From contig JABJNO010000017.1 in assembly GCA_018664825.1 (NCBI GenBank), forward strand, positions 50,743-114,742: 64,000 nt of DNA. The letters run 5' to 3'. The notes beneath the pieces were generated by a model. That model was not told the DNA's origin. It made no database searches and saw nothing but the letters and a program-made list of their open reading frames with translations. Source of the DNA: Candidatus Parcubacteria bacterium (lineage in GTDB: Bacteria; Patescibacteriota; Patescibacteriia; UBA1558; GWA2-36-10). Below, piece after piece: positions 9,842-44,417 of this stretch. The translations under genes were made by a program, and so were the position numbers. Positions within the stretch are counted from its first letter, which is position 1. Each line of letters opens with the position of its first letter.

Positions 9842-11848
9842 TTAAAATTTTATTACTTGTCCAGGATTTAGGACATTGTCATTGTTTGTGGGACCTGAGT
9901 TGTTCCCAGAAACAATCTTTGGTTTTCTAGCTTTCTTTTTCTCCTCTTTTTTCTTGGGTTGAGGTTTTGGAGTTTCTTTCTTTTTCTCCTCCTGGCCCAG
10001 GCCACCCTCTCCTCCAGAGGACCCTTTCTCGCTTCGCGATTCACCTTGTCTCGCTTCGCGATTCACCTTGTCTTTTTTAACTGGTTTTATTTCTGGTTCT
10101 TTTATTACTTCTTCTTTTTTTGTTTCGTCTTTTATTACCCTTGGCTTAGAAGAAGCTGATTTTCCAGCTGGTCCCATATTGAGAGCTTCAGATAAAGATA
10201 AAAATTCTTCTTTTGGCTGATTGGGTTTATCTTTGGAGGCAATCTTGATGCTAGATGGAGGTGGAATTTTGCCAGTTTTGGATAATGCCAAACACTCAGG
10301 ACAATAAATTGGTCGAGTAGGATCAGGTTCAAAGTTTATGATAGTGTCTTTACCACAAAAAGAACAATTTACTTCTTTGGCAGGAGTTGCACTTGGTCTT
10401 TTTGGCTTAGCATTATTAGCTGGCCTTGTATTGTTGGTAGGTCTAGTATTATTAGCTGGACGACTTGCTGCGGGGCGTGCATTGTTAAATGGTTTTGGAG
10501 CCGCACCTTTGTAGTTGTGGATAGTAGTTGGGATTGGTTTACCAACTTCTTCTTCTGGGCCTTTATTTTCGCTCCAACGGATAATTTTGTCTTCAATCAC
10601 AGCCCTTGGCTTGGCATATCGTTCACGAGTGACTTGGATAACTTTTTCTCTGATTAGAAAAGAATTTTCAGGTTCAGGTACCGGGGGAAGTGTACCGGCA
10701 GAAAAGCCATTTGAAGTGACTCCATCAATCATCAATTTTAGATAAACATCATACTTGGAGAGGTTTACCAAGTCTTCTTGGGTAAATGTTGGGAAGAATT
10801 CTTTTTCCAAAAACTCTGCATCGGCTGCTCCAATTCGAAAGGCTACAATAGTACCAACATTACCAAAAACAGCTGCTCGGACACCTTCTTCTACTTGTTC
10901 GATGTATTGATGAGCAATTACTAGGTTTAGTCGATATTTTCTGGCCTCAGATAAAATATTTGAAAATGATTCGGTGGCAAAGTTTTGGAACTCATCAACA
11001 TATAGATAAAAATCTTTACGTTCACTTTCGGGAGTATCTACTCTACTCATAGCTGCTAGTTGAATTTTGGTAATCATCATCGCACCAAGTAGAGCTGAGT
11101 TGTCCTCACCCACCCTACCTTTTGATAGGTTTAGGAGTAAGATTTTTTCTTCATCCATGATGTCACGCATAGCAAAAGATGATCTAACTTGACCCAAGAT
11201 GTTTCTAATCAAAGCAGAAGACAAGAAACGACCTACCTTATTTTGGATAGGAGCTATAGCTTCGGCTTGGAATCTATCTGGGTATTTACTATATTCTTCT
11301 ACCCAAAAGGCTTTGACTACGGGATCAGATATTTTTTCTACAACTCTTTTGCGAAAAGCCTTGTCAGTCAACATCCGCATGATGCCGAGCAAGGTAGAAC
11401 CTGGATATTCCAAAAGTGCAGAGATAGCATGATGCAATACATATTCCAAACGAGGTCCCCAAGAGTCAGCCCAGATTTTTTTGAATACACCAATCAGGCC
11501 AGAAACAACGAGATGTCTTTCTGCGGCAGATACTTTTTCCAAAACATTAAAACCAACCGGATTGTCTAGATCAGCTGGATTAAAATATATTGTGTCATTT
11601 ATCCTATGAGGTGGAATAAAGCCAAGTATTTTTTCGACCAAGTCACCATGAGGATCAACAACGCAGACACCTTTGCCCTCGTGGATGTCTTGGATAATCA
11701 TGTTTTCCAAAACAGTGGATTTTCCCATACCGGTTTTTCCAATAAAATACATATGACGGCGACGGTCGTCTTTTTTGATGCCAAATTTTACTTCAGAGTT
11801 TCGGTAGTTTGTTTTGGCAAACATTGTAACTGATGAGTTGTTATCCAT
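9842..11848 (-). CDS. FtsK/HerA-superfamily P-loop ATPase (VirB4/TraC- or TraD/VirD4-like), C-terminal half of a split module, with a zinc-ribbon and low-complexity tail
   Basis: RRRHMYFIGKTGMGKST...GKGVCVVDPHGDL, Walker B DFYLYVDEFQNF, and ARKYRLNLVIAHQYIEQ. The tail carries CSFCGKDTIINFEPDPTRPIYCPEC plus Asn/Pro/Lys-rich repeats. Confidence 0.7.
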   Translation of the reverse strand: MDNNSSVTMFAKTNYRNSEVKFGIKKDDRRRHMYFIGKTGMGKSTVLENMIIQDIHEGKGVCVVDPHGDLVEKILGFIPPHRINDTIYFNPADLDNPVGFNVLEKVSAAERHLVVSGLIGVFKKIWADSWGPRLEYVLHHAISALLEYPGSTLLGIMRMLTDKAFRKRVVEKISDPVVKAFWVEEYSKYPDRFQAEAIAPIQNKVGRFLSSALIRNILGQVRSSFAMRDIMDEEKILLLNLSKGRVGEDNSALLGAMMITKIQLAAMSRVDTPESERKDFYLYVDEFQNFATESFSNILSEARKYRLNLVIAHQYIEQVEEGVRAAVFGNVGTIVAFRIGAADAEFLEKEFFPTFTQEDLVNLSKYDVYLKLMIDGVTSNGFSAGTLPPVPEPENSFLIREKVIQVTRERYAKPRAVIEDKIIRWSENKGPEEEVGKPIPTTIHNYKGAAPKPFNNARPAASRPANNTRPTNNTRPANNAKPKRPSATPAKEVNCSFCGKDTIINFEPDPTRPIYCPECLALSKTGKIPPPSSIKIASKDKPNQPKEEFLSLSEALNMGPAGKSASSKPRVIKDETKKEEVIKEPEIKPVKKDKVNREARQGESRSEKGSSGGEGGLGQEEKKKETPKPQPKKKEEKKKARKPKIVSGNNSGPTNNDNVLNPGQVIKF
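10028..10071. repeat. Perfect 22-bp tandem duplication inside the ATPase tail CDS
   Basis: ctcgcttcgcgattcaccttgt occurs twice in tandem; 22 is not a multiple of 3. Confidence 0.85.
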
Positions 11849-11854
11849 TTTGTT

Positions 11855-13357
11855 TTAGGTAGGCAAATTAGGTGGTGGTGAACTCTTTGGTACATTAGTC
11901 GAAACAGTTTCGGGATCTTTTTTGACATGAGTTTCTTCGTATACTTTATTGTCAGTATTGATTTGTATTTTTTCAGTTGCAGCATTGAGCTGACCACGGA
12001 GAGCGTCAGAGATATCTCTTTGTTCATCCATAGGTCCAGTAGCAAATGGCAGAGATGAAGGTGGTTCGGCTTTTTTGGACTCTGTTCTTTGGAGTAAAGG
12101 CGCTCTGATAAATTTACTTGGGAAGTGCCAAAGAGTAGCTAGCTCTTCGATGCCCAAAATAAAAAAGTTATGTCCACGAGCACCACTACGATCTCGGTAA
12201 CCCTTCATTAGGTTTTCTCGACGGATTTTTTCACGTTGTTTTATAAAAAAATAGTTTATTTTTGTCTTGGTACGAGGATCTGGTTTGAAAGAGTTGAGAT
12301 CTAGAGCTGCAAATTGTTTGATACTACCAAAGACAGAAGATATTACCCTAGCTGGAGAATATACTTCTATTGGTGCGATATAAATAAGACGTATTTTACA
12401 TTCAAAGGCTAGCTTGGAAGCTTTTAGCTCTATAGCTTCGATCAGGCCTTTTTCTCCAGGAGTAAGATGAAGCATCATACTAGGCATGTCGTCTTTTTTG
12501 TTGGCACTAGCAGCTCCACCGGTTCCATCGCCTGGTAGTATAAAAGGCTCACCGGTAGAAAGAAAAAATAGTCCAAATATTGAGCCAAAAGTACTGGTTA
12601 TAAAATTTCCTTTTTTAGGAGGTGTTTTTTTACTAGCTATTTTATAAGCGAGTTCCATACTTTTTTTGACCCAATCAAAACCTGTGGGTTTGACCAATAT
12701 CTGGAACCAGACTTGTTCACCTGGTTGGATTTTACTCATAGTTTCCAGCATAGAAGCCAAAGGGTCTTTGAATCTTTCTTCGGCGGAAGGGTCTTCAAAA
12801 TGAGTATAAGTTTTGATAGGTATTGCTTGGTTTGTGACAGGAATTACTTCGGTACCCCAGATTTTGTGAGTTTCATTTGGGAAAGTGTATGGAGCATTTT
12901 GGACGTAATCCTCTACTTCAGTAATCTCAGCATCTGGATATTGTGAGTATATAGAGCTTTCTATCAAATCACGATAATGAGTCGGAGTCCAAATCAAAAA
13001 TTGGACATAACCATCTATACTTACTATTTCAAAAGAAAAGTGAAGCTGAAATTGACCCCACATGTACATCTCTTTGGCGTTGAGCATAGCATGAGCACCA
13101 GAGACAGTGGCAAACAATTGTTCGACAGCCTTTGGGGTTTGTTCGGTATCTTTTGGGACATCTACAGCTAGTAATACAAACTTGTTGGTACCGTACCATT
13201 TTATTTGTTGACCCATTAGCCAAATATCATAAGCACCCCAGCCAATGATATAAAGTATTATTACCCAACCTCCATGGGAAAAGAGATACCAAAAAGCAGG
13301 CCATGTTCCTTCATTGCCGAGATTGAGTAGTGGTGTAAAATCTATTACTATATCCAT
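11855..13357 (-). CDS. Membrane-anchored N-terminal partner domain of the split ATPase module (hypothetical)
   Basis: An N-terminal transmembrane helix is followed by a roughly 450-aa domain. HFSFEIVSIDGYVQFLIWTP is homologous to VFSLEIVSVNGLINFYAAIP at the N-terminus of the fused paralog at 31412-33859. The stop lies 7 nt before the ATPase start. Confidence 0.55.
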   Translation of the reverse strand: MDIVIDFTPLLNLGNEGTWPAFWYLFSHGGWVIILYIIGWGAYDIWLMGQQIKWYGTNKFVLLAVDVPKDTEQTPKAVEQLFATVSGAHAMLNAKEMYMWGQFQLHFSFEIVSIDGYVQFLIWTPTHYRDLIESSIYSQYPDAEITEVEDYVQNAPYTFPNETHKIWGTEVIPVTNQAIPIKTYTHFEDPSAEERFKDPLASMLETMSKIQPGEQVWFQILVKPTGFDWVKKSMELAYKIASKKTPPKKGNFITSTFGSIFGLFFLSTGEPFILPGDGTGGAASANKKDDMPSMMLHLTPGEKGLIEAIELKASKLAFECKIRLIYIAPIEVYSPARVISSVFGSIKQFAALDLNSFKPDPRTKTKINYFFIKQREKIRRENLMKGYRDRSGARGHNFFILGIEELATLWHFPSKFIRAPLLQRTESKKAEPPSSLPFATGPMDEQRDISDALRGQLNAATEKIQINTDNKVYEETHVKKDPETVSTNVPKSSPPPNLPT

Positions 13358-24539: not shown

Positions 24540-26264
24540 TTACTTTTTAGGGAATACTTCTTTTTTCTTTTTCATAAATCCAGTATGGCAAACATTGTGA
24601 ACATTTTTGTGATCAGCCAAGAATTCGTCATAAATTTCTTTGACTATTGGACTGTCATCCGCTAGGCGTATTTTTTTGTTGGTATCTACAGTATATAGTC
24701 CGGCGGCTCGTTTTTGGCGTATCTCATCATTTACTGGTACAGGTTGGCCTCCTCCACCGATACAACCACCAAAACAAGACATTACTTCTATATAGTCATA
24801 CTTGTTTGGTTGTTTTTTTAATTCTTCTATTATTTTGCGAGCATTTGAAATACCATTTACTACTCCTACACTGACTGTGTTACCTTTGATTTTTATCTTA
24901 GCTTCTTTGAAGCCTTCCATGCCGCGGACTTGTTTGAACTCTATACGAGGCAATCTTTTGCCAGTAATCATCTTGGCGGCAGTTCTCAAGGCTGATTCCA
25001 TCACACCACCACTAGCTCCATAAATCACTCCAGCACCTGTAGGTATTCCTAGTGATGAGTCCAATTTTTCAGGTTTAAGATTTTTGAAATCAATTTTATT
25101 TTTTCGTATCAAGTGAGATAGTTCGCGGGTAGTCAATACTTGATCAACTGGATAAATTCCATTTATTTTCATTTCTGGACGTTTTATCTCATATTTTTTG
25201 GCTACACAGGGCATTATAGATACAACGGTAATGTCTTTTGCTTTGAGGCCCATTTTTTGAGCCCAGAAAGTTTTTATCAGACCACCCATGATAATTTGTG
25301 GACTACGAACTGTAGTGAGGTTTGGTAACAATTCTGGATGATAAAATTCTGCAAATTTTACCCAACCCGGACAACAAGAAGTAAACATCGGCATCTCACC
25401 TTTGTTTTGGATACGATCTATCAACTCAGTAGCTTCTTCGATAGTTGTGACGTCAGCTCCAACGCTGACATCAAAGACATGCTTGATACCCAAGGCACGT
25501 ATAGCAGCGATAAGTTGGCCAGTGACAACACTACCTGGGGGCATGCCAAATTCTTCACCAATGGTACTACGGATAGATGGAGCAAATTGGAAGACGACTG
25601 TTTTTTTGGTATTCAAAAGATGTTTGTCTACACCCTCAAACTCACCCACGCCTTCAAAAGCTCCGACGGGGCAATGAGTCAAACATTGTCCGCAATATAT
25701 ACAGTCTTTATCTTTTTTGTCACTAGGCATTACTTCAAAAAACTTGCCTTTCTTTTTGTATTCTAAAAAATCAACACCAACTTTGTGACAAGCTTCTATA
25801 CACAACCCACAATCAATACATTTACTACTATCAAATTCCAAGGCTGGCCCAAATTTGTGAACAGGATGATGTTTTTTTCTATCAGTAAACTTGTTTATTT
25901 TTACTTTGTATTTTTTGGCATAATTACGGATTGTGCAATTTTGATAATAAATACAATCACTGCATTCTTCGCAGTGCTCACTAAAAATAAGTTCTAGATT
26001 TATTTTTCTAGCTCTTTTTATATTTGGAGAATCAGTAGTTATCTTCATGCCATCGCTTACTTCCGTACTACAAGAAGTGTGTAAACCATTCTTCCCTTTT
26101 ATTTCTACATTACAAAGACGGCAACTACCTTGTATTTTTAGATCTGGGTGATGACATAAGGTGGTAATATAAATATCATTGGCACGAGCTACATCCAAAA
26201 TACTCTGACCAGAGTCAGCTTTATATTTTTTTCCGTTGATTGTAATGTTTATTTTTTTTGGCAT
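24540..26264 (-). CDS. hydA: [FeFe]-hydrogenase catalytic subunit (N-terminal 2Fe-2S and 4Fe-4S domains plus H-cluster domain)
   Basis: H-cluster motifs TSCCPGWV, MPCVAKKYE and EVMSCFGGCIGGGGQP; the N-terminus has ferredoxin-like Cys clusters. Confidence 0.85.
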   Translation of the reverse strand: MPKKINITINGKKYKADSGQSILDVARANDIYITTLCHHPDLKIQGSCRLCNVEIKGKNGLHTSCSTEVSDGMKITTDSPNIKRARKINLELIFSEHCEECSDCIYYQNCTIRNYAKKYKVKINKFTDRKKHHPVHKFGPALEFDSSKCIDCGLCIEACHKVGVDFLEYKKKGKFFEVMPSDKKDKDCIYCGQCLTHCPVGAFEGVGEFEGVDKHLLNTKKTVVFQFAPSIRSTIGEEFGMPPGSVVTGQLIAAIRALGIKHVFDVSVGADVTTIEEATELIDRIQNKGEMPMFTSCCPGWVKFAEFYHPELLPNLTTVRSPQIIMGGLIKTFWAQKMGLKAKDITVVSIMPCVAKKYEIKRPEMKINGIYPVDQVLTTRELSHLIRKNKIDFKNLKPEKLDSSLGIPTGAGVIYGASGGVMESALRTAAKMITGKRLPRIEFKQVRGMEGFKEAKIKIKGNTVSVGVVNGISNARKIIEELKKQPNKYDYIEVMSCFGGCIGGGGQPVPVNDEIRQKRAAGLYTVDTNKKIRLADDSPIVKEIYDEFLADHKNVHNVCHTGFMKKKKEVFPKK

Positions 26265-29205: not shown

Positions 29206-30720
29206 TTATACTATCTCACCGCCAAAGGTATCAAGAACATCAGTAACCTCTTTATCATTTTTACCCTTAAAAACTTCGTGATTTTCTTTGTAGTTGGCGT
29301 CAATTTGAAAATTGATATTTAGTTTTTTGTCCAAATATTTTTCAAATATCTCAGTCAGATTACTTTTGACCTGTGGTTTGTCCAATTGTTCAATATGAAA
29401 TGCATACTCCAAACCAATCATAATACTTTCATTGTCTACAGACAAAGGATGTCCAGTCAATAATATAGAAGATAAAGAGTGGTTTAGTGGTTTTGAATCA
29501 TTGATTATATTACTCCAGTTTTTTTCTAATTTTTTTATAGCTTCACTGGAATTGTCAGTAGCTGTTTTTGATTGTTCGGGACTAGCATCTGATTGAGTTG
29601 GTTTTGTTTCTTGGATACCAGATTTTGTTTCTTTATTCAACAAAAATTCTACACAAGCCAATTCTAGTGGTAGTTGATCAATAAGAGAATCTTTGATTGA
29701 CAATTTTTCCAACAAAATATTCAAAAGTCTAGATAAGTCACTAAGCGGAAATTCAGCTGCGTGTTTTTTGATAGAAACAACCAAGTCTTCAGAAAAATCC
29801 AAGTTAAAAGATGGTCCAATTGTCTGATAAAGCATTATCTGCCGTAAGTAATCAATCAAATTAACAGTAAAATTTTGCAAATCAATACCTTCGGAAACAA
29901 GCTTATTTAGTTGATTTAGGGCAGTAGATAGATTGTTGTGGCGTAAAGACTCTACCAGTATATCGATTTCTCCCCAGTTGCTGCTAGGTAGTACCAAAGA
30001 AGCTAGTTCATCTGTCACTTTGTCAGTACCCAAAGATATAATCTGACCCAACAATGACTCGGCATCACGGAGACATCCTTCTGAACGACGAGAGATCTCG
30101 GCCAATAGATAATCCGGTACGGTTATTTTTTCCCATTCTATGATTTCACTAAGACGTTTGATCATATCAACTTGAGGAATTTTTTTGAGGTCAAATCTTT
30201 GGCAACGAGAGATTATTGTCTCGGGCACTTTGTGTATCTCAGTAGTAGCTAATATAAATATCACAGATTTTGGTGGCTCTTCTAGGGTTTTTAGGAGTGC
30301 ATTGAAGGCAGACTTGGAGAGCATGTGGACTTCATCGATAATAAAAACTTTGTAGCCCTTGTTGTTGAATGGGGGCACTTGAGCGTTGGCAATAATATTT
30401 TCTCGAATATTATCAACACCAGTATGGGATGCGGCATCTACTTCTATAAAATCCATACTACGTCCAGAACTAATCAAATTACAAATCTCACAATCATTAC
30501 AAGGTTCTGATTCTTTATCTTTTCTTTTTAAACAATTTAAAGAACGGGCAAACAATCTTGCTAGCGTTGTCTTACCCGTACCACGTGGACCTACAAAAAG
30601 ATATGCGTGAGCGATATTACCAGAGGCTATTTCGCTTTGCAGGGTTACCTTGATAGGCTTTTGACCAACCACTTCTTTAAAAGTTTTTGGTCTATACTTA
30701 CGATAAATTACTTCGGACAT
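29206..30720 (-). CDS. dnaX: DNA polymerase III subunit gamma/tau
   Basis: YRPKTFKEVVGQ...GPRGTGKTT, an AAA+ clamp-loader N-terminus and a zinc module CNDCEIC. Confidence 0.9.
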   Translation of the reverse strand: MSEVIYRKYRPKTFKEVVGQKPIKVTLQSEIASGNIAHAYLFVGPRGTGKTTLARLFARSLNCLKRKDKESEPCNDCEICNLISSGRSMDFIEVDAASHTGVDNIRENIIANAQVPPFNNKGYKVFIIDEVHMLSKSAFNALLKTLEEPPKSVIFILATTEIHKVPETIISRCQRFDLKKIPQVDMIKRLSEIIEWEKITVPDYLLAEISRRSEGCLRDAESLLGQIISLGTDKVTDELASLVLPSSNWGEIDILVESLRHNNLSTALNQLNKLVSEGIDLQNFTVNLIDYLRQIMLYQTIGPSFNLDFSEDLVVSIKKHAAEFPLSDLSRLLNILLEKLSIKDSLIDQLPLELACVEFLLNKETKSGIQETKPTQSDASPEQSKTATDNSSEAIKKLEKNWSNIINDSKPLNHSLSSILLTGHPLSVDNESIMIGLEYAFHIEQLDKPQVKSNLTEIFEKYLDKKLNINFQIDANYKENHEVFKGKNDKEVTDVLDTFGGEIV

Positions 30721-30726
30721 GAATTT

Positions 30727-31314
30727 TTATAAGGTAATCTCGAAATCATCAGCAGAAGACTGTGATGAGCCATTTTTGTTTTTGATAATATTTTCAATTG
30801 CCGCCCACTCACAAGAGGCTTCTTTGGCTACTAGTATCACAGCTTCGTCGGCAACCTCACCCTTAAAATATGTAACACTTGCTAATAAAACTTTATACAC
30901 TTTATCACCAGCCAAAACTATAAATTCTCCGCTTTCATGATCTTTGACAATATGCCCAACCAAACGTTGTCGGTCAACTGGGGAAATCTGCTTAAAGATA
31001 AATGAACCGTCAGGCTCAATAGTAAGTTTTAATATATCTCCTTCTACCAATTTTGATTTGGAAGCATAGTTGGCTGGTACAGAATATTCTTTGCCATCTG
31101 GTCCGATCATAATTTGACCATTGAACACACCTTCAACAATAACACTATTTCCAATGTTTTCTTCAGAACCTACCCTACCAGCTGTTTTTAGATGATCGGC
31201 ATTATTTTGTTTTTTACCAGAAATTTCATTTAGGATTGTTTTACTACGTTGTAGGTCCAATTCCAAATTATATATAACAGATTCTAACTCTTTTATTTTT
31301 TCTTTTTTTGACAT
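30727..31314 (-). CDS. Hypothetical protein (beta-rich, two-domain)
   Basis: 195 aa; no family recognised; sits 6 nt upstream of dnaX. Confidence 0.45.
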   Translation of the reverse strand: MSKKEKIKELESVIYNLELDLQRSKTILNEISGKKQNNADHLKTAGRVGSEENIGNSVIVEGVFNGQIMIGPDGKEYSVPANYASKSKLVEGDILKLTIEPDGSFIFKQISPVDRQRLVGHIVKDHESGEFIVLAGDKVYKVLLASVTYFKGEVADEAVILVAKEASCEWAAIENIIKNKNGSSQSSADDFEITL

Positions 31315-31411: not shown

Positions 31412-33859
31412 TTATATTATTACCCTTTGATCTACCTCTGCCTCGACTACTTTTCTATCCCGTCCATATTTAATACGAGAAAGCTCTTTGATGGCCATAG
31501 CTAGCTCATAATTGCCCTTTTCAGGCAACTGGGGTTGGAAGTTAAAGGCGGGTGGATTGGCGTTGTCTATCAATAATTTTATATAACAAGTGTACTTTGG
31601 CATATTGATCAAGTCATATTCAGAGACCACTGGAGCCATTTGTTTGGCTATGACCTCAGCATCTTCTACACCAATACGATATGAAATCAAAGTACCAACA
31701 TTACCAAAGATAGAATCTTTGATGCTGGTATCCCCTCCTTGAGTAAGTTGGGCAATGTACTGATGAGCAACTATAAGATTTAGTTTGTACTTTCGAGCTT
31801 CTGACAAAATACTAGCAATACTATCTGTCATAAAGTTTTGAAACTCATCGATATATAAATAAAAATCCTCACGTTGGTCTTCTTCTATGTCTACTCGACT
31901 CATAGCAGCAAACAATAATTTTCCGATTACAATCATACCAAGTAGGTTGCTATTCATTTCACCGATTTTACCCTTGGAAAGATTCAACAATATAATTTTG
32001 TTTTCATCCATGGCTTGGCGAAAATTGAAAGCAGATTTTTCTTGGGCAATAATAGGTCTGACCAAATCATTTGAGATAAAAGGAGTAAGTTTTGAGGTAA
32101 TATAAGGTACCATGTTGGCAAGAGATGCTTCACCGCCGGCTTTTTGAGCTTCTTTTTCCCAAAAGTCTTTGACGAATCTATTTTTTACTTTTGAGAGTTT
32201 ATATTTTCGGTAGTCATCATCAGCAAGTACTTTTGGAATCTCTAGCAAGGTAGCTCCACTTTCTTTGTCATCCATGATAAGCATCATGGCATTTCTCATA
32301 TATTGCTCAAACATCGGACCACCCGTAGCTTTGAGGTCGTAGAGTTTATCAAAAATATTTAATATCTCATTGATAACAAAAACCTTTTGTTCATCATTGT
32401 CATATTCGAGCATATTCATACCCAATGGTCTTTCAGCATCAGAAGGATCAAACAAAATTACATCCTCTGCCCTTTCTTTTGGTACATGGGTCAATGCCTT
32501 TTCTACCAAATCACCATGAGGATCAACCACGCAGACTCCTTTGCCAGCTTCAATGTCTTGTTTGATGAGCCCTTCCAAAAATACAGACTTACCAGTACCA
32601 GTTTGACCAATTTCGTACATATGACGACGACGGTCTGCTGGTTTCATACGTACTAGGGTTTCTTTGCCACGATAGCTATTTACACCCAAAATAATACCAT
32701 CTTCAGACATATTGTTTGGTGGCGGAGCTTTGACGGCTTCTAACCAGTCTATGTTTGGGGTTTCGGTAGTAGGTAATGGTAGATGCATGACACTGGTCAT
32801 TTCTTCGGAATTTAGCAACAACATATTTTTTGGTATGTAGTGTCGATAGATAAAATGATGTATCAAAGTATCTGGTTTTTTTGGAATAATAGCTTTAAAA
32901 CTATTACCAAATTCATAAATATTGTATTGACTATAACTATTTAATATATCGTTTAAAATAGCACTTGAACGGACCATTTCTTTTGTAGAAACAACAATCC
33001 TAGCATTTACCTCTAGGCCTGATTTTGAGGTTTTTTCTTCTAGGCCCTTGGCACGCTCTTGTTCCATACTCGACAATGGTTGGTGTGCTTCAGGAGTTGT
33101 TGAATCTTTATCACCTTGAGTTTGTACAAAACTAAATATAAAACCAAAAACTTTGCCTGCGGCAGCTAGTCCTCCGGTGCCTCCTGCTTTGTTTAGGGCC
33201 TTTTTATAAGTCATGCCACTTTGCATTTCAGTGGCAATCTTACGTCCTCTTTTGTGCCATTTTTTAGGAGCTGATCGGAAAACATACTGTACAGCAGCGG
33301 ATTCATTTTCGGTCAGCTTACTCATGCTATTGGTGATACTTTCTAGTGGATCAGTTTCAAATTGTTTGAAGGTTTTTATGGGTAAGCTAGCATCTCCGGT
33401 AAAACGTAAATGACCAGCGGCTATCTGGCTATCATTTTGAAAAATATTGTAATCACGCATATCCTCAAAGTATATTTTGGGATATACAGCCTGGAGTTGT
33501 TGAATAAAAAACTCTTTGTATATTTTTGGGATAGCGGCATAAAAGTTTATCAAGCCATTGACCGATACTATTTCTAGAGAAAAAACATCAGTCCTAGGAG
33601 CTAGGAATTTTTTATCTACTTTTAGGCCAGCCAAAGACATAAAAAGATTTTCTATTTTACCAAGAGCATTTTGAATATACTCTTTGGTCAACTCTTCTTT
33701 TTCTTGTTTGGTATACTTGGGGATTTTTATCAAAATGACCTCAAGTTCCAAATCCTTATTGGCTTTGGTTTGTAAGTTTGAGCGAACCAAATATAAAGCT
33801 AATGCTATGACAAAAGCAAGTCCTATAACGCCCCCAATTATAATAACTGTTGTGTCCAT
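31412..33859 (-). CDS. Fused membrane N-domain plus FtsK/HerA-superfamily ATPase (VirB4/TraC-like architecture); paralog of the split pair at 9842-13357
   Basis: 815 aa with an N-terminal transmembrane helix. Walker A near residue 425 (RRRHMYEIGQTGTGKSVF...GKGVCVVDPHGDL), Walker B DFYLYIDEFQNF, and ARKYKLNLIVAHQYIAQL. Confidence 0.7.
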   Translation of the reverse strand: MDTTVIIIGGVIGLAFVIALALYLVRSNLQTKANKDLELEVILIKIPKYTKQEKEELTKEYIQNALGKIENLFMSLAGLKVDKKFLAPRTDVFSLEIVSVNGLINFYAAIPKIYKEFFIQQLQAVYPKIYFEDMRDYNIFQNDSQIAAGHLRFTGDASLPIKTFKQFETDPLESITNSMSKLTENESAAVQYVFRSAPKKWHKRGRKIATEMQSGMTYKKALNKAGGTGGLAAAGKVFGFIFSFVQTQGDKDSTTPEAHQPLSSMEQERAKGLEEKTSKSGLEVNARIVVSTKEMVRSSAILNDILNSYSQYNIYEFGNSFKAIIPKKPDTLIHHFIYRHYIPKNMLLLNSEEMTSVMHLPLPTTETPNIDWLEAVKAPPPNNMSEDGIILGVNSYRGKETLVRMKPADRRRHMYEIGQTGTGKSVFLEGLIKQDIEAGKGVCVVDPHGDLVEKALTHVPKERAEDVILFDPSDAERPLGMNMLEYDNDEQKVFVINEILNIFDKLYDLKATGGPMFEQYMRNAMMLIMDDKESGATLLEIPKVLADDDYRKYKLSKVKNRFVKDFWEKEAQKAGGEASLANMVPYITSKLTPFISNDLVRPIIAQEKSAFNFRQAMDENKIILLNLSKGKIGEMNSNLLGMIVIGKLLFAAMSRVDIEEDQREDFYLYIDEFQNFMTDSIASILSEARKYKLNLIVAHQYIAQLTQGGDTSIKDSIFGNVGTLISYRIGVEDAEVIAKQMAPVVSEYDLINMPKYTCYIKLLIDNANPPAFNFQPQLPEKGNYELAMAIKELSRIKYGRDRKVVEAEVDQRVII

Positions 33860-33864
33860 GGTAG

Positions 33865-34356
33865 TTATTCTTTTTTATACATTTTCAATATAGCCTCCGC
33901 CTTTATTTTGGCTTCTTGCTCTATATAAAATTTATTTACTCTTGGGATTATCTTTAGCCAGTCAAAAATCAAAATAATCACTTGTTTTACTTTGACACCA
34001 GTCTGACGCATTAAAATTGCAATTTTTTGACTAGTTTCCTCCCCTTTTATTTTGAATTGTGCCTGAGTAGCAGCATCCATGGTCAAAAAAGCATTTTCCA
34101 TATCTTGTGATAAAACGCTCTCTATATTTTTTACTTCACCTGGATCAGCTGGTTGAGGAACTGGTTGAGCATCAACTGGAGCGGCAGGCAAGGGAGCTGG
34201 TTGAGGAGTTTGAGAGACCTCTTCAGCGACTTGTTCGGGAGTTACCTCTGGCTTTTGCTCTACACTAGGCTCTATTTGCTCAGCTTGAGGAACCGGGGTT
34301 TCTGGTACCGCGGGTTTGTCTGGGGTTATATTTGGTGTGTTTGTTAAATCTGGCAT
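33865..34356 (-). CDS. Pro/Glu-rich hypothetical protein, operon partner of the fused ATPase
   Basis: PxxP-rich N-terminal half and a helical C-terminus; its stop is 6 nt before the ATPase start. Confidence 0.45.
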   Translation of the reverse strand: MPDLTNTPNITPDKPAVPETPVPQAEQIEPSVEQKPEVTPEQVAEEVSQTPQPAPLPAAPVDAQPVPQPADPGEVKNIESVLSQDMENAFLTMDAATQAQFKIKGEETSQKIAILMRQTGVKVKQVIILIFDWLKIIPRVNKFYIEQEAKIKAEAILKMYKKE

Positions 34357-34382
34357 GAATATATTATAGCAGATTTAGGTAT

Positions 34383-34844
34383 TTATTGTAAGTTATTTTT
34401 TATAACTTTAAAAACTTTATTTCTATCTTTGATTCCAAACAAATATATTTTTTTATTATCTATCATCAAATAAATGCTGTCGTTATTGTGTTTTGCTATT
34501 TTTTCTATTCTATCCAAATCAAAGGATACGAGTTGTAAAAACTTATTTTCATCGCTTGCTTTGAGAAAGATAATACGCTGATCCGTTAGTAGATAAAAAT
34601 TGCCCTTGGTCAAGAGGAATTTTAGCAAAGTAAACAACAAAAATAATGTCCAGGCACACCATAACCAAAATCCTTGGTGCCCTGCCTGCCAAATAGGCCA
34701 CAGCATAAAAAAAGTAAGCACCAATAAAGACAAAACAAAGTAAATCCTTGGTGCTCTAGCCTTTGGTGTTATCAACAAAGTTAGCTCTTCCGTATTTTTA
34801 ATAAATTTGTTAAACTTATCCATAGTATGAATAGAAAAACCCAA
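34383..34844 (-). CDS. Membrane protein with a bacterial PH-like (bPH) domain
   Basis: Two transmembrane helices followed by YLLTDQRIIF-type strands. Confidence 0.4.
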   Translation of the reverse strand: MGFSIHTMDKFNKFIKNTEELTLLITPKARAPRIYFVLSLLVLTFFMLWPIWQAGHQGFWLWCAWTLFLLFTLLKFLLTKGNFYLLTDQRIIFLKASDENKFLQLVSFDLDRIEKIAKHNNDSIYLMIDNKKIYLFGIKDRNKVFKVIKNNLQ

Positions 34845-38270: not shown

Positions 38271-40742
38271 TTATTTAGAGGAAATTATAAAACCATAATA
38301 TTGATCGCTAAATAAATTAACACTAAAAGTTACCAAATGATCAGTCACGCTGATTTGATCTTCCTCGGTAGCATTGTTCCATAAGACCTTTAGGCTGTCT
38401 GGTACAATCACCGATGAATTTAGAATTGTATTTTTATCTCCAGATTGAGACTGTACAACTAAACTATAATTATCAAGCTCTAAATCATGTCTAAAAATTT
38501 TACTTGCCCAATCATTTATTAGCGGATCTTTTGATTTGAGAGTAAATGGAAGTTTGTATTTCAATAAGACAGTTTGAGTTTCGCCGGGTTTGAGAGCAAC
38601 CCAGTTGGCGAAAACTGTTTTATCGAGGCTAGTAAAAATTTCTGTCCCTGATTCTCCATCAATCATTTTATTTTCTTCTTTGGAAATATCTGGATCAAGT
38701 TTGGCATTTGCTTCTGGACTTTTAAACAAATAGCTTGGCATTTTATCAAAACCAATAGCTTCTATGAGCTCACTATTTAGAGGGACATAAATTCGCATAT
38801 AACTTACGTTGCCACCCTCAAACCCAGCCAATGGGTTGTTGGAATCACCTTTATTTGTTCTAGTGATACGTACAGTGTTTATAACCTCGCCATTTTCTTG
38901 GATATTGGCCTGATGATCAATAGTTTGGAAAACATCTAGATCAGTTTTACCGCCAGCAATATTTGTGTTTATAACAGACAAATAATCACGATCATTTGCT
39001 ACCATACGACCTGACCAGCCAAAACTGTCAATTTTCTTTTCCATATCAACATCATTGGAATATATTTGGATATCTTTATCCATCAAGCTACTAATAAAAA
39101 CAGCCAAAATATCTTTTTGTTTTTCTTTTGAATTGAATAATTTATCCAAAACAACAGGTACCAAATCAGCGATTATTGCTTTTGGTTCGTCTTCATTTTT
39201 ATAATTGAATTCTACTTCTTCTTGAAGTACATCAAACAAATTTAAAGAGGTTATTGTTATGCCATATTCAGGCATAGAGACGGGGCCTAGGGTTTCTAAC
39301 AAATTTTTCAAAACTTCTGCATTGATACTAATCACTCCATTGACCGAAGAACCACCAGCTTGTTCGTATAGAGTTTCTATTTTTTTGGCAGAAGTAGGAT
39401 AATCAGCCCACCAGTTTGCATCCCAAATATTAAAATGAGGGTTTATCAAAGATAGTGGCTTTGGTCCTATTGTTTTATACTTTTGACCTGCTTCTAGGTC
39501 ATACAAGCCACCTTTTAGGGTTTCAATGTCTAAAATTTCGCCTTTATATATATCAATTAGAGAAAAACTACCAATAAATCCACCAGTTGCTCGAAGCTCG
39601 TTGTTGTTTTGAAATAAAACCAAATATCTTCTTTCAGCATCGTTGCCCAGCATCTGAAGTAACACTTCAAACATGTCATTTACCGAGTGCAGATTTTGAG
39701 TTAGTTCTGGTAGAGAAGCTTTTAGGTTATCAAAATATATTCTAAACTCATCAGGTAAGGCGTTGGTAGATATTTTTTGAATATCTGCATTTGCTTGATC
39801 AAGGTATGGGATGGTCTTGTTTATCTGAATATGTAAAAAATCTATATGCTCTGTCAGACGAGCATCTGATTTTAAACTTTCGTTCAAGATACTAGCAGCT
39901 TCTGATATATTTGTAGCTACTGCTAGCATGTTGCGACTCAGAGAAATTGGTTTTCCAACCATTGGCATGACTTCGGCAGTATCAAGTATCCATTGTTCGT
40001 ATTCATCTAGGACACCCTGAGCATCGTTAAAATTTGTAAGCGCTTTATCAAATTCACCCTGAGCATCATCATATGAATTTTCAGAAGCAGACAAAACACC
40101 AGCCTGCAAACTGAGTAATCCCTGTTGGCCGTATTGGATGGCTAGATTTTTGTGATCTTGGATTTTTCCAAAAAATACTAATCCTCGAATTGGTAACAAA
40201 ATCAAAGCTACTATGATAGCAAATAAAAATGACTTACTAAAAGCCAAACCAAGAGAAAGCTTTGGTAGTTTGGGTAATTTTGGAATTTTTAGGTTTATAG
40301 ACTTTTTAGGTTTGGATTCTTTTGGTGGTATATATAGTTCAGGTTCAATAAAATTTGTCTCTACTTTTTCCTTCTTTGAATGCTTTCCAAATTTAGGTAG
40401 TTGAAATTTCTTTTTTGGTTTTTGTTGAGACCCACGTAGATCAACTACATGTTCAGAAGTATAAACATTGGCGGCCTTGGTATACTCTACTGGAGGGGAT
40501 ATCTTTTTTATTTTTTGAGTAGTCTTTAAAGTATCTTTTGTGTCTTTTTTTATGGTTCGTAATATTTGAGAAAAACTCAAATCCTGCTTGATTAGTTTAT
40601 CAAGTTCAGCCAAAGCTTTTTGTCTCTGCCCCTTAATCTCTTGAGCTGATAAATTTTCATCAACCAAAAAATCGTCTATTTCATCTAGAAGCTCTTCTTT
40701 GAAATTAGCAGTACTATTTTTGATTTTTTTACCTGTCGACAT
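38271..40742 (-). CDS. DUF4012 domain membrane protein (cell-envelope associated)
   Basis: A transmembrane helix followed by RYLVLFQNNNELRATGGFIGSF, the DUF4012 signature; 823 aa; adjacent to the glycosyltransferase cluster. Confidence 0.7.
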   Translation of the reverse strand: MSTGKKIKNSTANFKEELLDEIDDFLVDENLSAQEIKGQRQKALAELDKLIKQDLSFSQILRTIKKDTKDTLKTTQKIKKISPPVEYTKAANVYTSEHVVDLRGSQQKPKKKFQLPKFGKHSKKEKVETNFIEPELYIPPKESKPKKSINLKIPKLPKLPKLSLGLAFSKSFLFAIIVALILLPIRGLVFFGKIQDHKNLAIQYGQQGLLSLQAGVLSASENSYDDAQGEFDKALTNFNDAQGVLDEYEQWILDTAEVMPMVGKPISLSRNMLAVATNISEAASILNESLKSDARLTEHIDFLHIQINKTIPYLDQANADIQKISTNALPDEFRIYFDNLKASLPELTQNLHSVNDMFEVLLQMLGNDAERRYLVLFQNNNELRATGGFIGSFSLIDIYKGEILDIETLKGGLYDLEAGQKYKTIGPKPLSLINPHFNIWDANWWADYPTSAKKIETLYEQAGGSSVNGVISINAEVLKNLLETLGPVSMPEYGITITSLNLFDVLQEEVEFNYKNEDEPKAIIADLVPVVLDKLFNSKEKQKDILAVFISSLMDKDIQIYSNDVDMEKKIDSFGWSGRMVANDRDYLSVINTNIAGGKTDLDVFQTIDHQANIQENGEVINTVRITRTNKGDSNNPLAGFEGGNVSYMRIYVPLNSELIEAIGFDKMPSYLFKSPEANAKLDPDISKEENKMIDGESGTEIFTSLDKTVFANWVALKPGETQTVLLKYKLPFTLKSKDPLINDWASKIFRHDLELDNYSLVVQSQSGDKNTILNSSVIVPDSLKVLWNNATEEDQISVTDHLVTFSVNLFSDQYYGFIISSK

Positions 40743-41101: not shown

Positions 41102-42193
41102 TTACTTTTGTGAGTTATATATGTCCAATATAGCCCTTCCCATGGTGTCCCAAGAGTATTTTTTTAGCTGATTTTGGCCATTTTTTGCCAATATTTCAGC
41201 TAATTCAGGGGTTTTTATGAGCTCTTCTAGCTTATTCTGTAGATCTCCCTTATCTTTGGGGTCAAAATATAGCACAGATTGCCCCAATATCTCTGGTAAA
41301 CAAGAAGAATTTGAGGAAATTACAGGTGTACCATGGGTCATTGCCTCGAGTGGTGGCAATCCAAAACCTTCATAGAGTGAAGGGAAGACATAGGCAGTGG
41401 CATTTTTATAATAGCTAGAGATTTGATCATCTGGAACAAATCCAGGAAAAATTATATTTTGACAATTCGTTTCATTTTCTAATCTTTGATAAAAATAATT
41501 TTTATTACCAACCAAAATCAGATAGTACTCTGGATATTTTTTTATGAACTCCTCAAAAACTTTTATCAAGAATTCTAAATTTTTATGAGGATAAGCATTG
41601 CCTACATAAAGAAAGTAATTTTTTGGCAGGTCTACCATAGCATCATCAGAAGTTTTTACTATAGTGACGCCTTCATAAATAGTTTTTATTTTTTCAGACT
41701 CTTTATCTGAAAGTTTAAAATAATTTTTGATATCAGTTGCGGTAAATTTTGAAACAGCAATTATTTTTGTAGATTTTTTGACAGCATAAGTAATCACTTT
41801 TTTGTAAAACCAATATTTGATAAAAAAGAAATATTTATTTAGAGTACTTGCTCGCTTGCTGGGAAATTTTGTCATTATCAAGTCATGGATAGTAACGATA
41901 AATTTTCCTTTATAAAATATCGGTACATTGAAATGAGGAAAATGGACCAAGTCAGCATTTATTTTATTCAAGATCCCCGGTAAAACAAGTTGTTCTTTGA
42001 TGCTGTACCAACGACAGTCTACTATCTCAACAGCAAAATTATTCGGCAAATCTATCTTTGGGTTTTTTCTAAACAACAAAACATATTGATTTTGTGAATC
42101 AAGTTTTATGAGTTGGTCCAAAAGTTGTTGGTTGTACCTGCCTAAGCCACCATACTTTGGTCCGTATATTCGTAAATCAATAACAATCTTCAT
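41102..42193 (-). CDS. Glycosyltransferase family 4 (GT-B)
   Basis: EGFGLPPLEAM...PVISS motif. Confidence 0.8.
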   Translation of the reverse strand: MKIVIDLRIYGPKYGGLGRYNQQLLDQLIKLDSQNQYVLLFRKNPKIDLPNNFAVEIVDCRWYSIKEQLVLPGILNKINADLVHFPHFNVPIFYKGKFIVTIHDLIMTKFPSKRASTLNKYFFFIKYWFYKKVITYAVKKSTKIIAVSKFTATDIKNYFKLSDKESEKIKTIYEGVTIVKTSDDAMVDLPKNYFLYVGNAYPHKNLEFLIKVFEEFIKKYPEYYLILVGNKNYFYQRLENETNCQNIIFPGFVPDDQISSYYKNATAYVFPSLYEGFGLPPLEAMTHGTPVISSNSSCLPEILGQSVLYFDPKDKGDLQNKLEELIKTPELAEILAKNGQNQLKKYSWDTMGRAILDIYNSQK

Positions 42194-43311
42194 TTAGTTG
42201 TATTTTCAAAAATATTAAGTATTTTTTGAGTCTGTTTGGTCCAATTGGGTATTTCAAATTCTTTTGAGGACTCTATCAAGTCTTTTTTTAATGTATCATC
42301 ACAAACAAGTAATTTCAAGGCTTGATAGGTATCGGAAGTATTATAAGGATCAACATACAGTGCTTGCTGTTTCATTATTTCAGGCAAAGAGGTCTTGTAA
42401 CTTGCTATTACTGGTATTCCATGAAAAGTAGCTTCTAGTGGTGGAAAACCAAAGCCTTCATAAAAAGATGGCCAAATCAGTCCTTGGCTCATACAATACA
42501 AGGCGTCTTTTTCAGAACCTCTTACATAATCAAGATAATGAATATAACTTTTGGTATTTATCATCTTCATAATACCTTTGTATAACCATCCCTTACTACC
42601 AACAATTACCAGGTCAATGTCTTTGTGTTCTTTGTGTAGTCTATCAAAAGCTTTGATAATGTTCAAAATATTCTTTCTAGGCTCTATGGTACCCACGTAT
42701 AAAAAATATTTATTCTTTATATCAAATTTTTCAATAATTTTTTCAGCGGCTTCTTTATCTATTTTTGTGGCTGATGTTCCAGGATAAATTACTTCTACCT
42801 TGTCTTTTGGTACAGAAAAAAATCTTACAATATCTCTTTTTGTATTATCAGAAACAGCGATTATTTTGTCAGCCTGTTTGACCAGGCTATGTACTTTGAC
42901 CAACTTGTGCCAAAGTCTACGTTTTAGAGAATAAAATTCAGTGTTATGCAAAAAAGATAAGTCATGAATAGTTAGTATGGTGGGTATGTTTTTGTTGGAT
43001 TTATAAAAATTGAGGTTTGGCAACCAAAATAAATCTAGCTTTACTGGTGTTTTATTTGTAACATTGGGCCCAAGACCAGTCAAAATACCTCCATGCAAAA
43101 ATTTGTTGGGTATTTTGTAGTGAATATGATGCACATTGTCTTTTTTGATATCAAACCAAGTGCTAACGGTATCTCTATATCCAGAACTAAAAAGATAATA
43201 ATTATTTCTATTATCAATTTGTGCCAAAGTTTTTACAGAATTATAAATATAATTACCAATTCCACTCATTTGGCTATTTGATAAAGCCCTGATGTCGATA
43301 CCTATATTCAT
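42190..43311 (-). CDS. Glycosyltransferase family 4 (GT-B)
   Basis: EGFGFPPLEATFHGIPVIAS; 4-nt overlap with the downstream glycosyltransferase. Confidence 0.8.
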   Translation of the reverse strand: MNIGIDIRALSNSQMSGIGNYIYNSVKTLAQIDNRNNYYLFSSGYRDTVSTWFDIKKDNVHHIHYKIPNKFLHGGILTGLGPNVTNKTPVKLDLFWLPNLNFYKSNKNIPTILTIHDLSFLHNTEFYSLKRRLWHKLVKVHSLVKQADKIIAVSDNTKRDIVRFFSVPKDKVEVIYPGTSATKIDKEAAEKIIEKFDIKNKYFLYVGTIEPRKNILNIIKAFDRLHKEHKDIDLVIVGSKGWLYKGIMKMINTKSYIHYLDYVRGSEKDALYCMSQGLIWPSFYEGFGFPPLEATFHGIPVIASYKTSLPEIMKQQALYVDPYNTSDTYQALKLLVCDDTLKKDLIESSKEFEIPNWTKQTQKILNIFENTTK

Positions 43312-43316
43312 CCTTA

Positions 43317-44417
43317 TTAAATATTATTTATAAGTTCTAATACTTTTTGCCTAAACACTTTTTCATCAAATTTTTTGGCGTGTTCACGAATGTTAATAGA
43401 ATTATAATTTTTATTATCAAATCTCAAAATTTTGTGAGCCAATGATTCCCAGGTCTGTTCATCAAAAAAAGTACCACTCAATCCCTCAACCACAGTTTCT
43501 AGGGCTCCACCTTTTTTCAAAGCTATTACTGGCCTACCAGAAGCCATGGCCTCGATGGCAGTGATGCCAAAATCTTCTATTTGTGGATATATAAAAGCTT
43601 TGCAACGAGCAAGGTATCGGTTTCTTTCTTCGTCTGATATTTCACCCAAAAATTCTATATTAGAATGAGCTAGTTTTTTTAATCTGCTCATTTCAGAGCC
43701 ACTACCTATTATCTTGAGTGGAAGTTTTAGATTGTTGAATGCATGGATAGCCATATCAACTTTTTTGTACGGCCTCAAACGACTGACCAACAAATAATAG
43801 TCCTCTATTTCATTAGAAATATGAAAATCATCTACATTAACGGGTGGATATATTACCTGGGCATCTTTTTTGTAATGTTTGGCTATCTTTTTGGCAATAA
43901 AATTTGAGTTGGCAATAAAATGATCCACATTTTGGGCTTTGTCATAATCCCATTGTTGTAATCTATCTAATAAACGAGGTAAAAAAGTTTTCAAAAACTT
44001 TCCCTCTGGCAAATTACCGATATATTCTTCTTGATCATCCCAAAGATATCTAGTTGGAGCATGGCAATAACATATATGGACAGCGCCTTCTTTTTTGTTT
44101 AGACCTTTTACAAAAGCAGACGAAGAACTAATAATCAGATCGTAGTCATCAAAATTTATCGCTTCCCAAGCTTTGGGCATAGATAACAAAAAATATCTAA
44201 ACATTTTGTTGATTAACGGGATTTTTTGAAGGTAAGAAGTGTATATTTTGTCCTGATCCAAAATTTGTTTGGTAATCTTTGGATTGTTTATCAATGTAAA
44301 AATAGGTGCTGTTTTGTCTAAAGATGCCAATACAACCAAGACTCTTTCTGCACCACCAATTTGAAACAAATGATCATGAGCAAGGGCAATTTTTTGCATA
44401 TTATGTTTGATCATCAC
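43317..44417 (-). CDS. Glycosyltransferase family 4 (GT-B)
   Basis: EDFGITAIEAMASGRPVIAL. Confidence 0.8.
   Translation of the reverse strand: MMIKHNMQKIALAHDHLFQIGGAERVLVVLASLDKTAPIFTLINNPKITKQILDQDKIYTSYLQKIPLINKMFRYFLLSMPKAWEAINFDDYDLIISSSSAFVKGLNKKEGAVHICYCHAPTRYLWDDQEEYIGNLPEGKFLKTFLPRLLDRLQQWDYDKAQNVDHFIANSNFIAKKIAKHYKKDAQVIYPPVNVDDFHISNEIEDYYLLVSRLRPYKKVDMAIHAFNNLKLPLKIIGSGSEMSRLKKLAHSNIEFLGEISDEERNRYLARCKAFIYPQIEDFGITAIEAMASGRPVIALKKGGALETVVEGLSGTFFDEQTWESLAHKILRFDNKNYNSINIREHAKKFDEKVFRQKVLELINNI

Follow-up and report, generated by a model that had tools for sequence, protein, structure and literature searches.

Type IV coupling proteins (T4CPs) such as VirD4, TrwB, TraD, and DotL carry an N-terminal domain with two transmembrane (TM) helices directly before the nucleotide-binding domain. 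Small proteins, among them DotM/N/Y/Z, TraM, and CagF, aid T4CPs in substrate recruitment or regulate them, and in the R388 system the N-terminal domains of the ATPase VirB4 are membrane-embedded and make contact with VirB3 and VirB8 (reviewed in PMC12857230). In Patescibacteria, which also go by the name Candidate Phyla Radiation (CPR), 5,713 VirD4-type homologues have been catalogued in 2,918 of 3,035 genomes, about two per genome (PMC12102498). CPR genomes also hold a separate clade of bona fide VirB4, and the published phylogeny nests the CPR type IV secretion system (T4SS) within the monoderm/archaeal MPF-FATA class. Here, we describe two modules of this kind in a 64,000-nucleotide (nt) stretch of contig JABJNO010000017.1 (assembly GCA_018664825.1) from a Candidatus Parcubacteria bacterium, hereafter the window. 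One is a fused 815-amino-acid (aa) ATPase, preceded by the gene of a 163-aa partner protein, and the other is split between a 500-aa and a 668-aa protein. The fused protein has a T4CP-type motor by sequence and the plan of VirB4 by its predicted whole architecture, and it is one of two ancient paralogous modules in the core genome of Patescibacteria.

The T4CP-type family of the motor, which substantiates a preliminary description of the gene as a secretion-type ATPase, was established by three Pfam models that the 815-aa protein matches above their gathering cut-offs, namely TrwB_AAD_bind (37.9 bits, cut-off 20.5), T4SS-DNA_transf (33.8 bits, cut-off 20.1), and TraG-D_C (25.5 bits, cut-off 22); DUF87 also exceeds its gathering threshold in the C-terminal half. 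When a profile built from 40 fused-form orthologues was compared with all PDB sequences, only TrwB and DotL were matched. The all-alpha insertion in the nucleotide-binding domain, a trait of T4CPs, is present as well. The protein is set apart from the characterized T4CPs by the equivalog- or subfamily-type NCBIfam models of TraD/VirD4, under whose cut-offs it falls far in every case (best, the subfamily-type SXT_TraD, 48.3 bits vs 366), and by its N-terminal half, in which one TM helix and the approximately 350 residues of DUF8128 stand in place of the two-TM domain.

This N-terminal half is assigned to PF26449 (DUF8128) in the fused protein, in the stand-alone 500-aa protein, and in all listed homologues. 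The assignment was taken from the precomputed public Pfam annotation of identical gene products; the local copy of Pfam lacks this model and gave no match for the N-terminal half, and a full-text literature search on DUF8128/PF26449 found no paper. The AlphaFold2 model of the fused protein has a predicted local distance difference test (pLDDT) value of 85.5 and a predicted template modeling (pTM) score of 0.73, with only the hydrophobic loop at residues 228–256 poorly defined. In a Foldseek search with the full model, full-length TrwK/VirB4 ranked first, with about 900 columns aligned, ahead of TrwB; the CagZ-Cag-beta structure 8dol also appears among the fold-search matches. Given that the stand-alone DUF8128 protein lacks an ATPase domain and that its fold hit list holds no RecA-type ATPase, we infer that the match is to the N-terminal domain of VirB4, and DUF8128 is thus predicted to adopt a fold like that of this domain. 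No sequence-level homology of DUF8128 to VirB4 was detected among PDB sequences, and no sequence-profile relationship links the fused protein to the families of VirB4 (as in TrwK of R388 and VirB4 of Thermoanaerobacter pseudethanolicus), so that the connection is a structural one only.

The preliminary description had spoken of a transmembrane N-domain. This holds for the first 30 or so residues, which form a single TM helix (score of 2.78 in the 19-residue Kyte-Doolittle window), and not for the following approximately 350 residues of DUF8128. Across the 40 orthologues, lysine and arginine together average 0.15 in the 15 residues before the helix vs 3.85 after it, which indicates an N-out/C-in orientation and a cytoplasmic location for both DUF8128 and the motor, as predicted by a clear positive-inside pattern. 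A second hydrophobic stretch stays under the TM level, with a 19-residue score of 1.36.

Both open reading frames (ORFs) of the partner and fused genes lie where they had been placed, and the ATPase motifs quoted for them were found in the two copies of the module. Walker A reads GQTGTGKS in the fused and GKTGMGKS in the split motor, Walker B reads YLYIDEF and YLYVDEF, respectively, and the EARKY and AHQ motifs are kept in both. The split N-protein terminates in a nearly invariant PPxNLP motif, and the fused protein has its equivalent (PPPNNM; family consensus PPxNxP) at residues 379–384, with the first strand of the motor directly following. This correspondence upholds the proposal that the fusion point maps to the 6-nt spacer between the split genes, from 11848 to 11855. 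The split N-protein has about 55 additional residues, located between an internal and the terminal copy of the PPxNLP-type motif.

The ATPase halves of the fused and split forms share 44% identity over 418 aa (BLASTP, E = 5e-116), and the fused N-domain and the 500-aa protein share 22% over 428 aa (BLASTP, E = 8e-20). N-domain identity averages 42% (range 31–76) within the fused group and 48% (36–84) within the split group vs 24% (18–31) between the groups, without overlap between the within-group and between-group ranges; 40 residues of the N-domain are conserved in both. Motor identity of 44% and N-domain identity of 22–24% mark the modules as old paralogs and not as a duplication made in assembly, and, judged by these sequences, they are two orthologous groups that arose by ancient duplication. 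The presence of two diverged copies of the module, one fused and one split, is thereby borne out; near-identity, the sign of a recent assembly duplication, is not seen, and both similarities, including that of the N-domain, are significant. A Nomurabacteria contig (L081) carries both modules at a distance of 8 kb, and their order and orientation match those of the window.

With 5,713 homologues in 2,918 of 3,035 genomes, two copies per genome are the rule in CPR (PMC12102498), and both forms have orthologues in many CPR lineages, so that the earlier view of two copies as unusual for a reduced genome had to be abandoned. Database relatives of the fused protein number more than 5,000, and among the best 120 every named one belongs to Patescibacteria. 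Those of the stand-alone DUF8128 protein number about 1,900, likewise in CPR, and include a 100% identical one from a Candidatus Parcubacteria metagenome-assembled genome. Within this very common and previously catalogued CPR family, the window genes are ordinary members.

Outside CPR, a tblastn search of plasmids with the motor returned 590 records, all under 60% identity, and three plasmid loci, from Embleya, Natrinema, and Priestia, were found to carry DUF8128 as well. The T4CP-like proteins of Embleya and Natrinema share the architecture of the CPR form, with similarity that is collinear over the N-domain and the motor. The 812-aa protein WP_331738717.1, encoded on plasmid NZ_CP108778.1 of Embleya sp. 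NBC_00896, aligns to residues 99–789 of the window protein with 26% identity over 723 aa (E = 6e-65), and its N-terminal 410 residues alone match the DUF8128 hidden Markov model (HMM) at E = 2.9e-15, a search in which 400 shuffled controls gave nothing. Its gene follows those of PrgI (VirB3-like) and a VirB4-like ATPase (AAA_10, TraC_F_IV) and precedes those of a Replic_Relax protein and an NlpC/P60+SLT hydrolase; the window protein matches the VirB4-like ATPase at E = 0.003 only (BLASTP). On pNATPE02 of Natrinema pellirubrum, a stand-alone DUF8128 protein (E = 2.6e-30) is encoded by a gene that runs into the start of a T4CP-like ATPase gene (WP_006182425.1 and WP_006182424.1), and the pair adjoins genes for a TrbL/VirB6-like protein, a further large ATPase, and a pilin. 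On a Priestia megaterium megaplasmid, a DUF8128 ORF (E = 1.4e-47) adjoins a fragmented ATPase. The homologues on Sulfitobacter and Rhodococcus plasmids and that of Streptomyces fungicidicus gave no match to the DUF8128 HMM. With a fused form in Embleya and a split one in Natrinema, both architectures exist in monoderm/archaeal T4SS clusters, in the position of the coupling protein, a context that fits the published nesting of the CPR T4SS in the MPF-FATA class. The Embleya and Natrinema forms reside on plasmids, in clusters with VirB4-like, PrgI, VirB6-like, relaxase-like, hydrolase, and pilin genes, unlike the CPR form, which is chromosomal, comes as two conserved paralogs, is usually far from virB4, and has no relaxase. 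No homologues of the partner or of the 195-aa protein encoded downstream of the fused gene were found in these non-CPR loci, and within this small sample both look lineage-specific in their sequence distribution.

The neighborhood of the fused gene was compared across 80 species-level loci with fused-form orthologues at 50–76% identity, drawn from Komeili-, Uhr-, Falkow-, Magasanik-, and Kerfeldbacteria, Paceibacter, and Minisyncoccota. In 69 of the 80, the gene immediately upstream encodes a homologue of the 163-aa protein, an affirmative answer to the question of whether the partner is conserved next to the fused form; at least 4 of the 11 loci without a match simply have no upstream DNA. 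The gap between the partner and ATPase genes ranges from -8 to +26 nt in nearly all loci, with a 4-nt overlap frequent. In the window, it amounts to 5 nt (CTACC), one fewer than first reported, and no obvious Shine-Dalgarno sequence was seen. An apparent in-frame fusion of the two genes in one locus (L079) proved to be an artefact of a masked run of N. In six Falkowbacteria-like loci (L043, L044, L054, L055, L058, and L077), the place of the partner is taken by a protein of 85–96 aa with an N-terminal TM helix, a non-hydrophobic middle, and a lysine-rich tail.

As first described, the N-terminal half of the partner is rich in proline and glutamate: residues 1–73 of the window protein contain 26% proline, have a net charge of -10, and presumably form a disordered acidic tail. 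Across the family, this part spans 57–199 residues, is rich in glutamate, proline, and alanine with a mean net charge of -6, and is not conserved in sequence. Conservation is confined to the C-terminal approximately 90 residues (74–163 in the window protein), which are mildly basic, presumably helical, and follow the family consensus FK.KGE...WL..IPGVNKFFLEQEAKIKTD. A search with this C-domain among 1.84 billion proteins yielded 1,596 cluster representatives, and in 150 of the 150 listed matches it stands at the C-terminal end of proteins of 95–250 aa. No TM helix was detected in the partner, the maximal 19-residue Kyte-Doolittle score being 1.37 in the window protein, and only 1 of the 69 homologues reaches 1.6. 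The family profile gave no PDB sequence match at E ≤ 10, and kinship to TonB, VirB10, or another known family was rejected after Pfam, NCBIfam, and PDB profile searches that produced only sub-threshold, inconsistent matches, such as DUF2057. Its composition gives the partner the appearance of a soluble protein whose acidic tail is disordered. By position and size, it is analogous to the T4CP auxiliaries DotM/N/Y/Z, TraM, CagF, and CagZ, differing from them in having no sequence similarity to any solved structure or Pfam family. A cytoplasmic role as an auxiliary to the ATPase is probable.

A promoter-like element (consensus scan score 10/12, extended -10) lies directly before the partner gene. 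Of the 13 closest loci, 8 (L001, L002, L004–L007, L009, and L013) have its pattern, cTTACa-N17/18-TGnTATAAT, at this same position, and 3 others (L003, L008, and L012) have it 20–28 nt upstream. The position of the element 6 nt before the ATG and its recurrence in close relatives suggest that the operon begins at the partner gene and that its transcript is leaderless or nearly so. On the coding strand, no terminator-like site was found in the intergenic gaps from the partner gene to the end of dnaX.

The split module differs in the C-terminal part of its motor, which continues into a 243-aa low-complexity tail rich in lysine, proline, glutamate, and asparagine that contains a CxxC-x17-CxxC zinc ribbon (zf_Tbcl_2/TIGR04272). 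A DUF8128 gene is paired with a zf_Tbcl_2-bearing ATPase in three other CPR loci (L081, L085, and L086), and the order of a sigma70_r4/HARE-HTH protein, DUF8128, and zf_Tbcl_2 ATPase is kept. The sigma70_r4/HARE-HTH protein of 386 aa may be a dedicated regulator or may simply reflect conserved gene order. A proline-rich, probably disordered segment is tied to both modules, lysine-rich and in the same protein as the motor in the split one, acidic and in a separate protein in the fused one.

Downstream of the fused gene, a homologue of the 195-aa protein is encoded directly in 69 of the 80 loci, and dnaX follows in 74. The 195-aa protein, whose gene always stands between that of the fused ATPase and dnaX, has a very strongly conserved core with the consensus EGVFDGQ.MIG.DGK.Y.VPANYASKSKLVEGDILKLTI. 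Comparison with MazE/AbrB gave sub-threshold matches only, in 8 of 36 members (best E = 0.0067). In Streptomyces fungicidicus p1 (L090, 7104–10712), a related 803-aa ATPase is followed by a small hypothetical protein and then by an AbrB/MazE/SpoVT-family protein; hhalign found no relation of the 195-aa protein to this AbrB-family protein (probability 0.5%) or of the partner to the small protein, and both connections were rejected. The gene of a 153-aa membrane protein between lepA and the partner gene was likewise rejected as part of the module, its conservation being limited to the 13 closest loci. The rest of the window resembles a typical CPR chromosome, with genes for an [FeFe]-hydrogenase large subunit that has ferredoxin domains, for ClpB, for proteins with Beta_propel and DUF4012 domains, and for three GT4 glycosyltransferases clustered with a sugar transferase.

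Table 1. Coordinates of the fused and split modules, their sub-features, and other genes of the window.
Feature	Position in window	Strand	Description
Fused ATPase gene	31412..33859	-	815 aa; TM anchor, DUF8128, and T4CP-type ATPase; from ORF, Pfam/NCBIfam, and AlphaFold2 model
N-terminal TM helix, residues 1-31	33767..33859	-	Single, predicted N-out/C-in; model helix 3-31
DUF8128 domain, residues ~36-390	32690..33754	-	Predicted cytoplasmic; ends in conserved EE..S..HLP and PPxNxP motifs
RecA-type motor, residues 395-815	31415..32677	-	Inserted all-helical region ~489-604
Walker A, residues 418-425	32585-32608		Fused protein
Walker B, residues 667-673	31841-31861		Fused protein
EARKY, at residue 687			Fused protein
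AHQ, at residue 698			Fused protein
Partner gene	33865..34356	-	163 aa; Pro-rich tail and conserved C-domain; from ORF
Promoter-like element	34363..34392	-	CTTACA-18 nt-TG-TATAAT; 6 nt from its end to the ATG of the partner gene; from pattern match and conservation
Split-form DUF8128 gene	11855..13357	-	500 aa; TM helix, DUF8128, and C-terminal extension ending PPPNLPT
Split-form T4CP-type ATPase gene	9842..11848	-	668 aa; 243-aa tail with zinc ribbon
Split ATPase tail, residues 426-668	9842-10570	-	Low-complexity
Zinc ribbon, residues 492-521	10286-10375		In split ATPase tail
Sigma70_r4 + HARE-HTH protein gene	13469-14629	-	386 aa; directly upstream of split module; likewise in L081 and L085
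195-aa gene	30727..31314	-	N-terminal coiled coil and strongly conserved, probably beta-rich region; no Pfam family
dnaX (DNA polymerase III tau/gamma)	29206..30720	-	Pfam DNA_pol3_delta2 and DNA_pol3_gamma3 on identical public gene call
153-aa membrane protein gene	34383-34844	-	Between lepA and partner gene; weak bPH_3 match, E = 0.0076
Remaining window genes named in scan	24540-26264, 4198-6774, 19057-21180, 38271-40742, 41102-45813	- (all)	

We favor the reading, with a probability of roughly 55%, that the modules are T4CP-like ATPases that recruit substrate, or feed it, to a type IV secretion-related channel. The motor would form a ring at the inner face of the membrane, DUF8128 would dock it to the membrane and to VirB3/VirB8-type channel subunits in the manner of the N-terminal domain of VirB4, and ATP hydrolysis would recruit a substrate, DNA or protein, to the patescibacterial T4SS-related channel or feed it there. 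The 163-aa protein, which is likely co-transcribed and translationally coupled with the fused ATPase, would serve as a cytoplasmic auxiliary subunit (adaptor or regulator) binding through its conserved C-domain, and in the split module DUF8128 and the motor are encoded by two translationally coupled genes. Several observations weigh against the coupling role. Among the scanned genes of the 64-kb window, there is no VirB4, VirB6, relaxase, pilin, or type IV secretion/pilus gene, and the neighbors are housekeeping genes, lepA, murJ, and dnaX for one module and secDF and AMP phosphorylase for the other. Just 148 of the 5,713 CPR homologues are near virB4, the homologues occur in 2,918 genomes vs 2,417 for VirB4, and the homologue of Southlakia epibionticum is non-essential although its T4SS genes are essential, exaptation being left possible by the authors (PMC12102498). 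Relaxases are nearly absent from CPR. Finally, the fold assignments derive from AlphaFold models, and DUF8128 and VirB4 do not match at the sequence level.

Many of the same facts favor the main rival explanation, a distinctly less probable one, namely that the modules descend from T4CPs and now work as T4SS-independent membrane DNA translocases, either in FtsK-like chromosome or DNA handling coupled to replication or division or in the uptake of DNA during natural transformation. The order of partner, ATPase, 195-aa gene, and dnaX is kept in 69–74 of the 80 genomes, across several CPR classes; the homologues are near-universal, commoner than VirB4, and seldom near it; the Southlakia homologue is non-essential, like comEC, whereas the T4SS is essential; and relaxases are scarce, as noted above. 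The superfamily to which the motor belongs, FtsK/HerA, consists of DNA pumps, and, judging from composition, the zinc ribbon and basic tail of the split motor could bind nucleic acid. FtsK/SpoIIIE proteins are of the same ATPase superfamily and, like the fused protein, membrane-anchored, and the window genes lie near a replication gene. However, the fused protein lacks the motor-domain profile and the gamma domain of these proteins, with no FtsK_SpoIIIE Pfam match at E ≤ 0.1, and the saccharibacterium TM7x has a separately annotated ftsK. Moreover, adjacency to dnaX may merely reflect the general conservation of core gene order in CPR, and the non-CPR homologues of the same architecture are found within T4SS clusters.

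A related and more tentative proposal, which we regard as rather unlikely, is that the DUF8128 modules keep the ancestral two-domain plan of VirB4 and T4CPs, the VirB4-type N-domain never having been lost, and that they were taken into the patescibacterial core genome as a machine that is independent of any T4SS and equipped with a lineage-specific partner. A role of this kind would be in line with their near-universality and with the fixed place next to dnaX.

It is less probable still that the fused protein is a divergent VirB4-type assembly ATPase, not a substrate receptor, with the split form mirroring the TrsD/TrsE split of Gram-positive systems. The two-domain plan is that of VirB4, as the top Foldseek rank of full-length TrwK/VirB4 suggests, and one subclass of MPF-FATA systems has a separate protein, TrsD, that is akin to the N-terminal part of VirB4. 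Sequence profiles, however, side with the T4CPs: the fused protein gave no CagE_TrbE_VirB or AAA_10 Pfam match, and TIGR00929 (VirB4_CagE) scored 19.2 bits vs a cut-off of 643. Within the Embleya cluster, the gene in the T4CP position is the one matched at E = 6e-65, vs E = 0.003 for the VirB4-like one, and CPR already possess the separate VirB4 clade.

The preliminary description had also pointed to a secretion ATPase whose proline-rich partner would span the periplasm or envelope in the manner of TonB/VirB10, and this we consider very improbable. The proline- and glutamate-rich N-terminal half of the partner and the tight coupling of its gene to that of a membrane ATPase are compatible with it, and the likeness goes no further than the proline-rich stretch: the 163-aa protein has neither a TM or signal-like hydrophobic segment that could anchor it nor a C-terminal TonB/VirB10 domain, 35 members of the family gave no match to the TonB_C, TonB_N, or TrbI/VirB10 Pfam models, and it is the C-terminal domain that is conserved, not the variable proline-rich part. 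An origin of the pair of modules by faulty assembly or recent duplication, a notion with nothing in its favor beyond the motifs common to both, can be dismissed given the identities reported above, the separate orthologues and separate conserved neighborhoods of the fused and split forms elsewhere, and their joint occurrence on the Nomurabacteria contig.

In the literature searched, several aspects of this family appear undescribed, namely the VirB4-type fold predicted for DUF8128, the fused and split orthologous modules, the dedicated partner family, the cluster of partner, ATPase, 195-aa gene, and dnaX, and the link to the actinobacterial and haloarchaeal DUF8128 T4CPs. Much of bacterial diversity falls within Patescibacteria, which rely on host cells; their T4SS is essential for epibiotic growth, yet has no assigned coupling protein, and their many T4CP homologues have so far gone unexplained. 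The present analysis turns a database annotation into testable hypotheses, either a substrate route to the patescibacterial T4SS or an exaptation of these motors, and bears on the divergence of VirB4 and VirD4. If the modules do form a T4SS-independent machine, it could move DNA or another macromolecule at the membrane.

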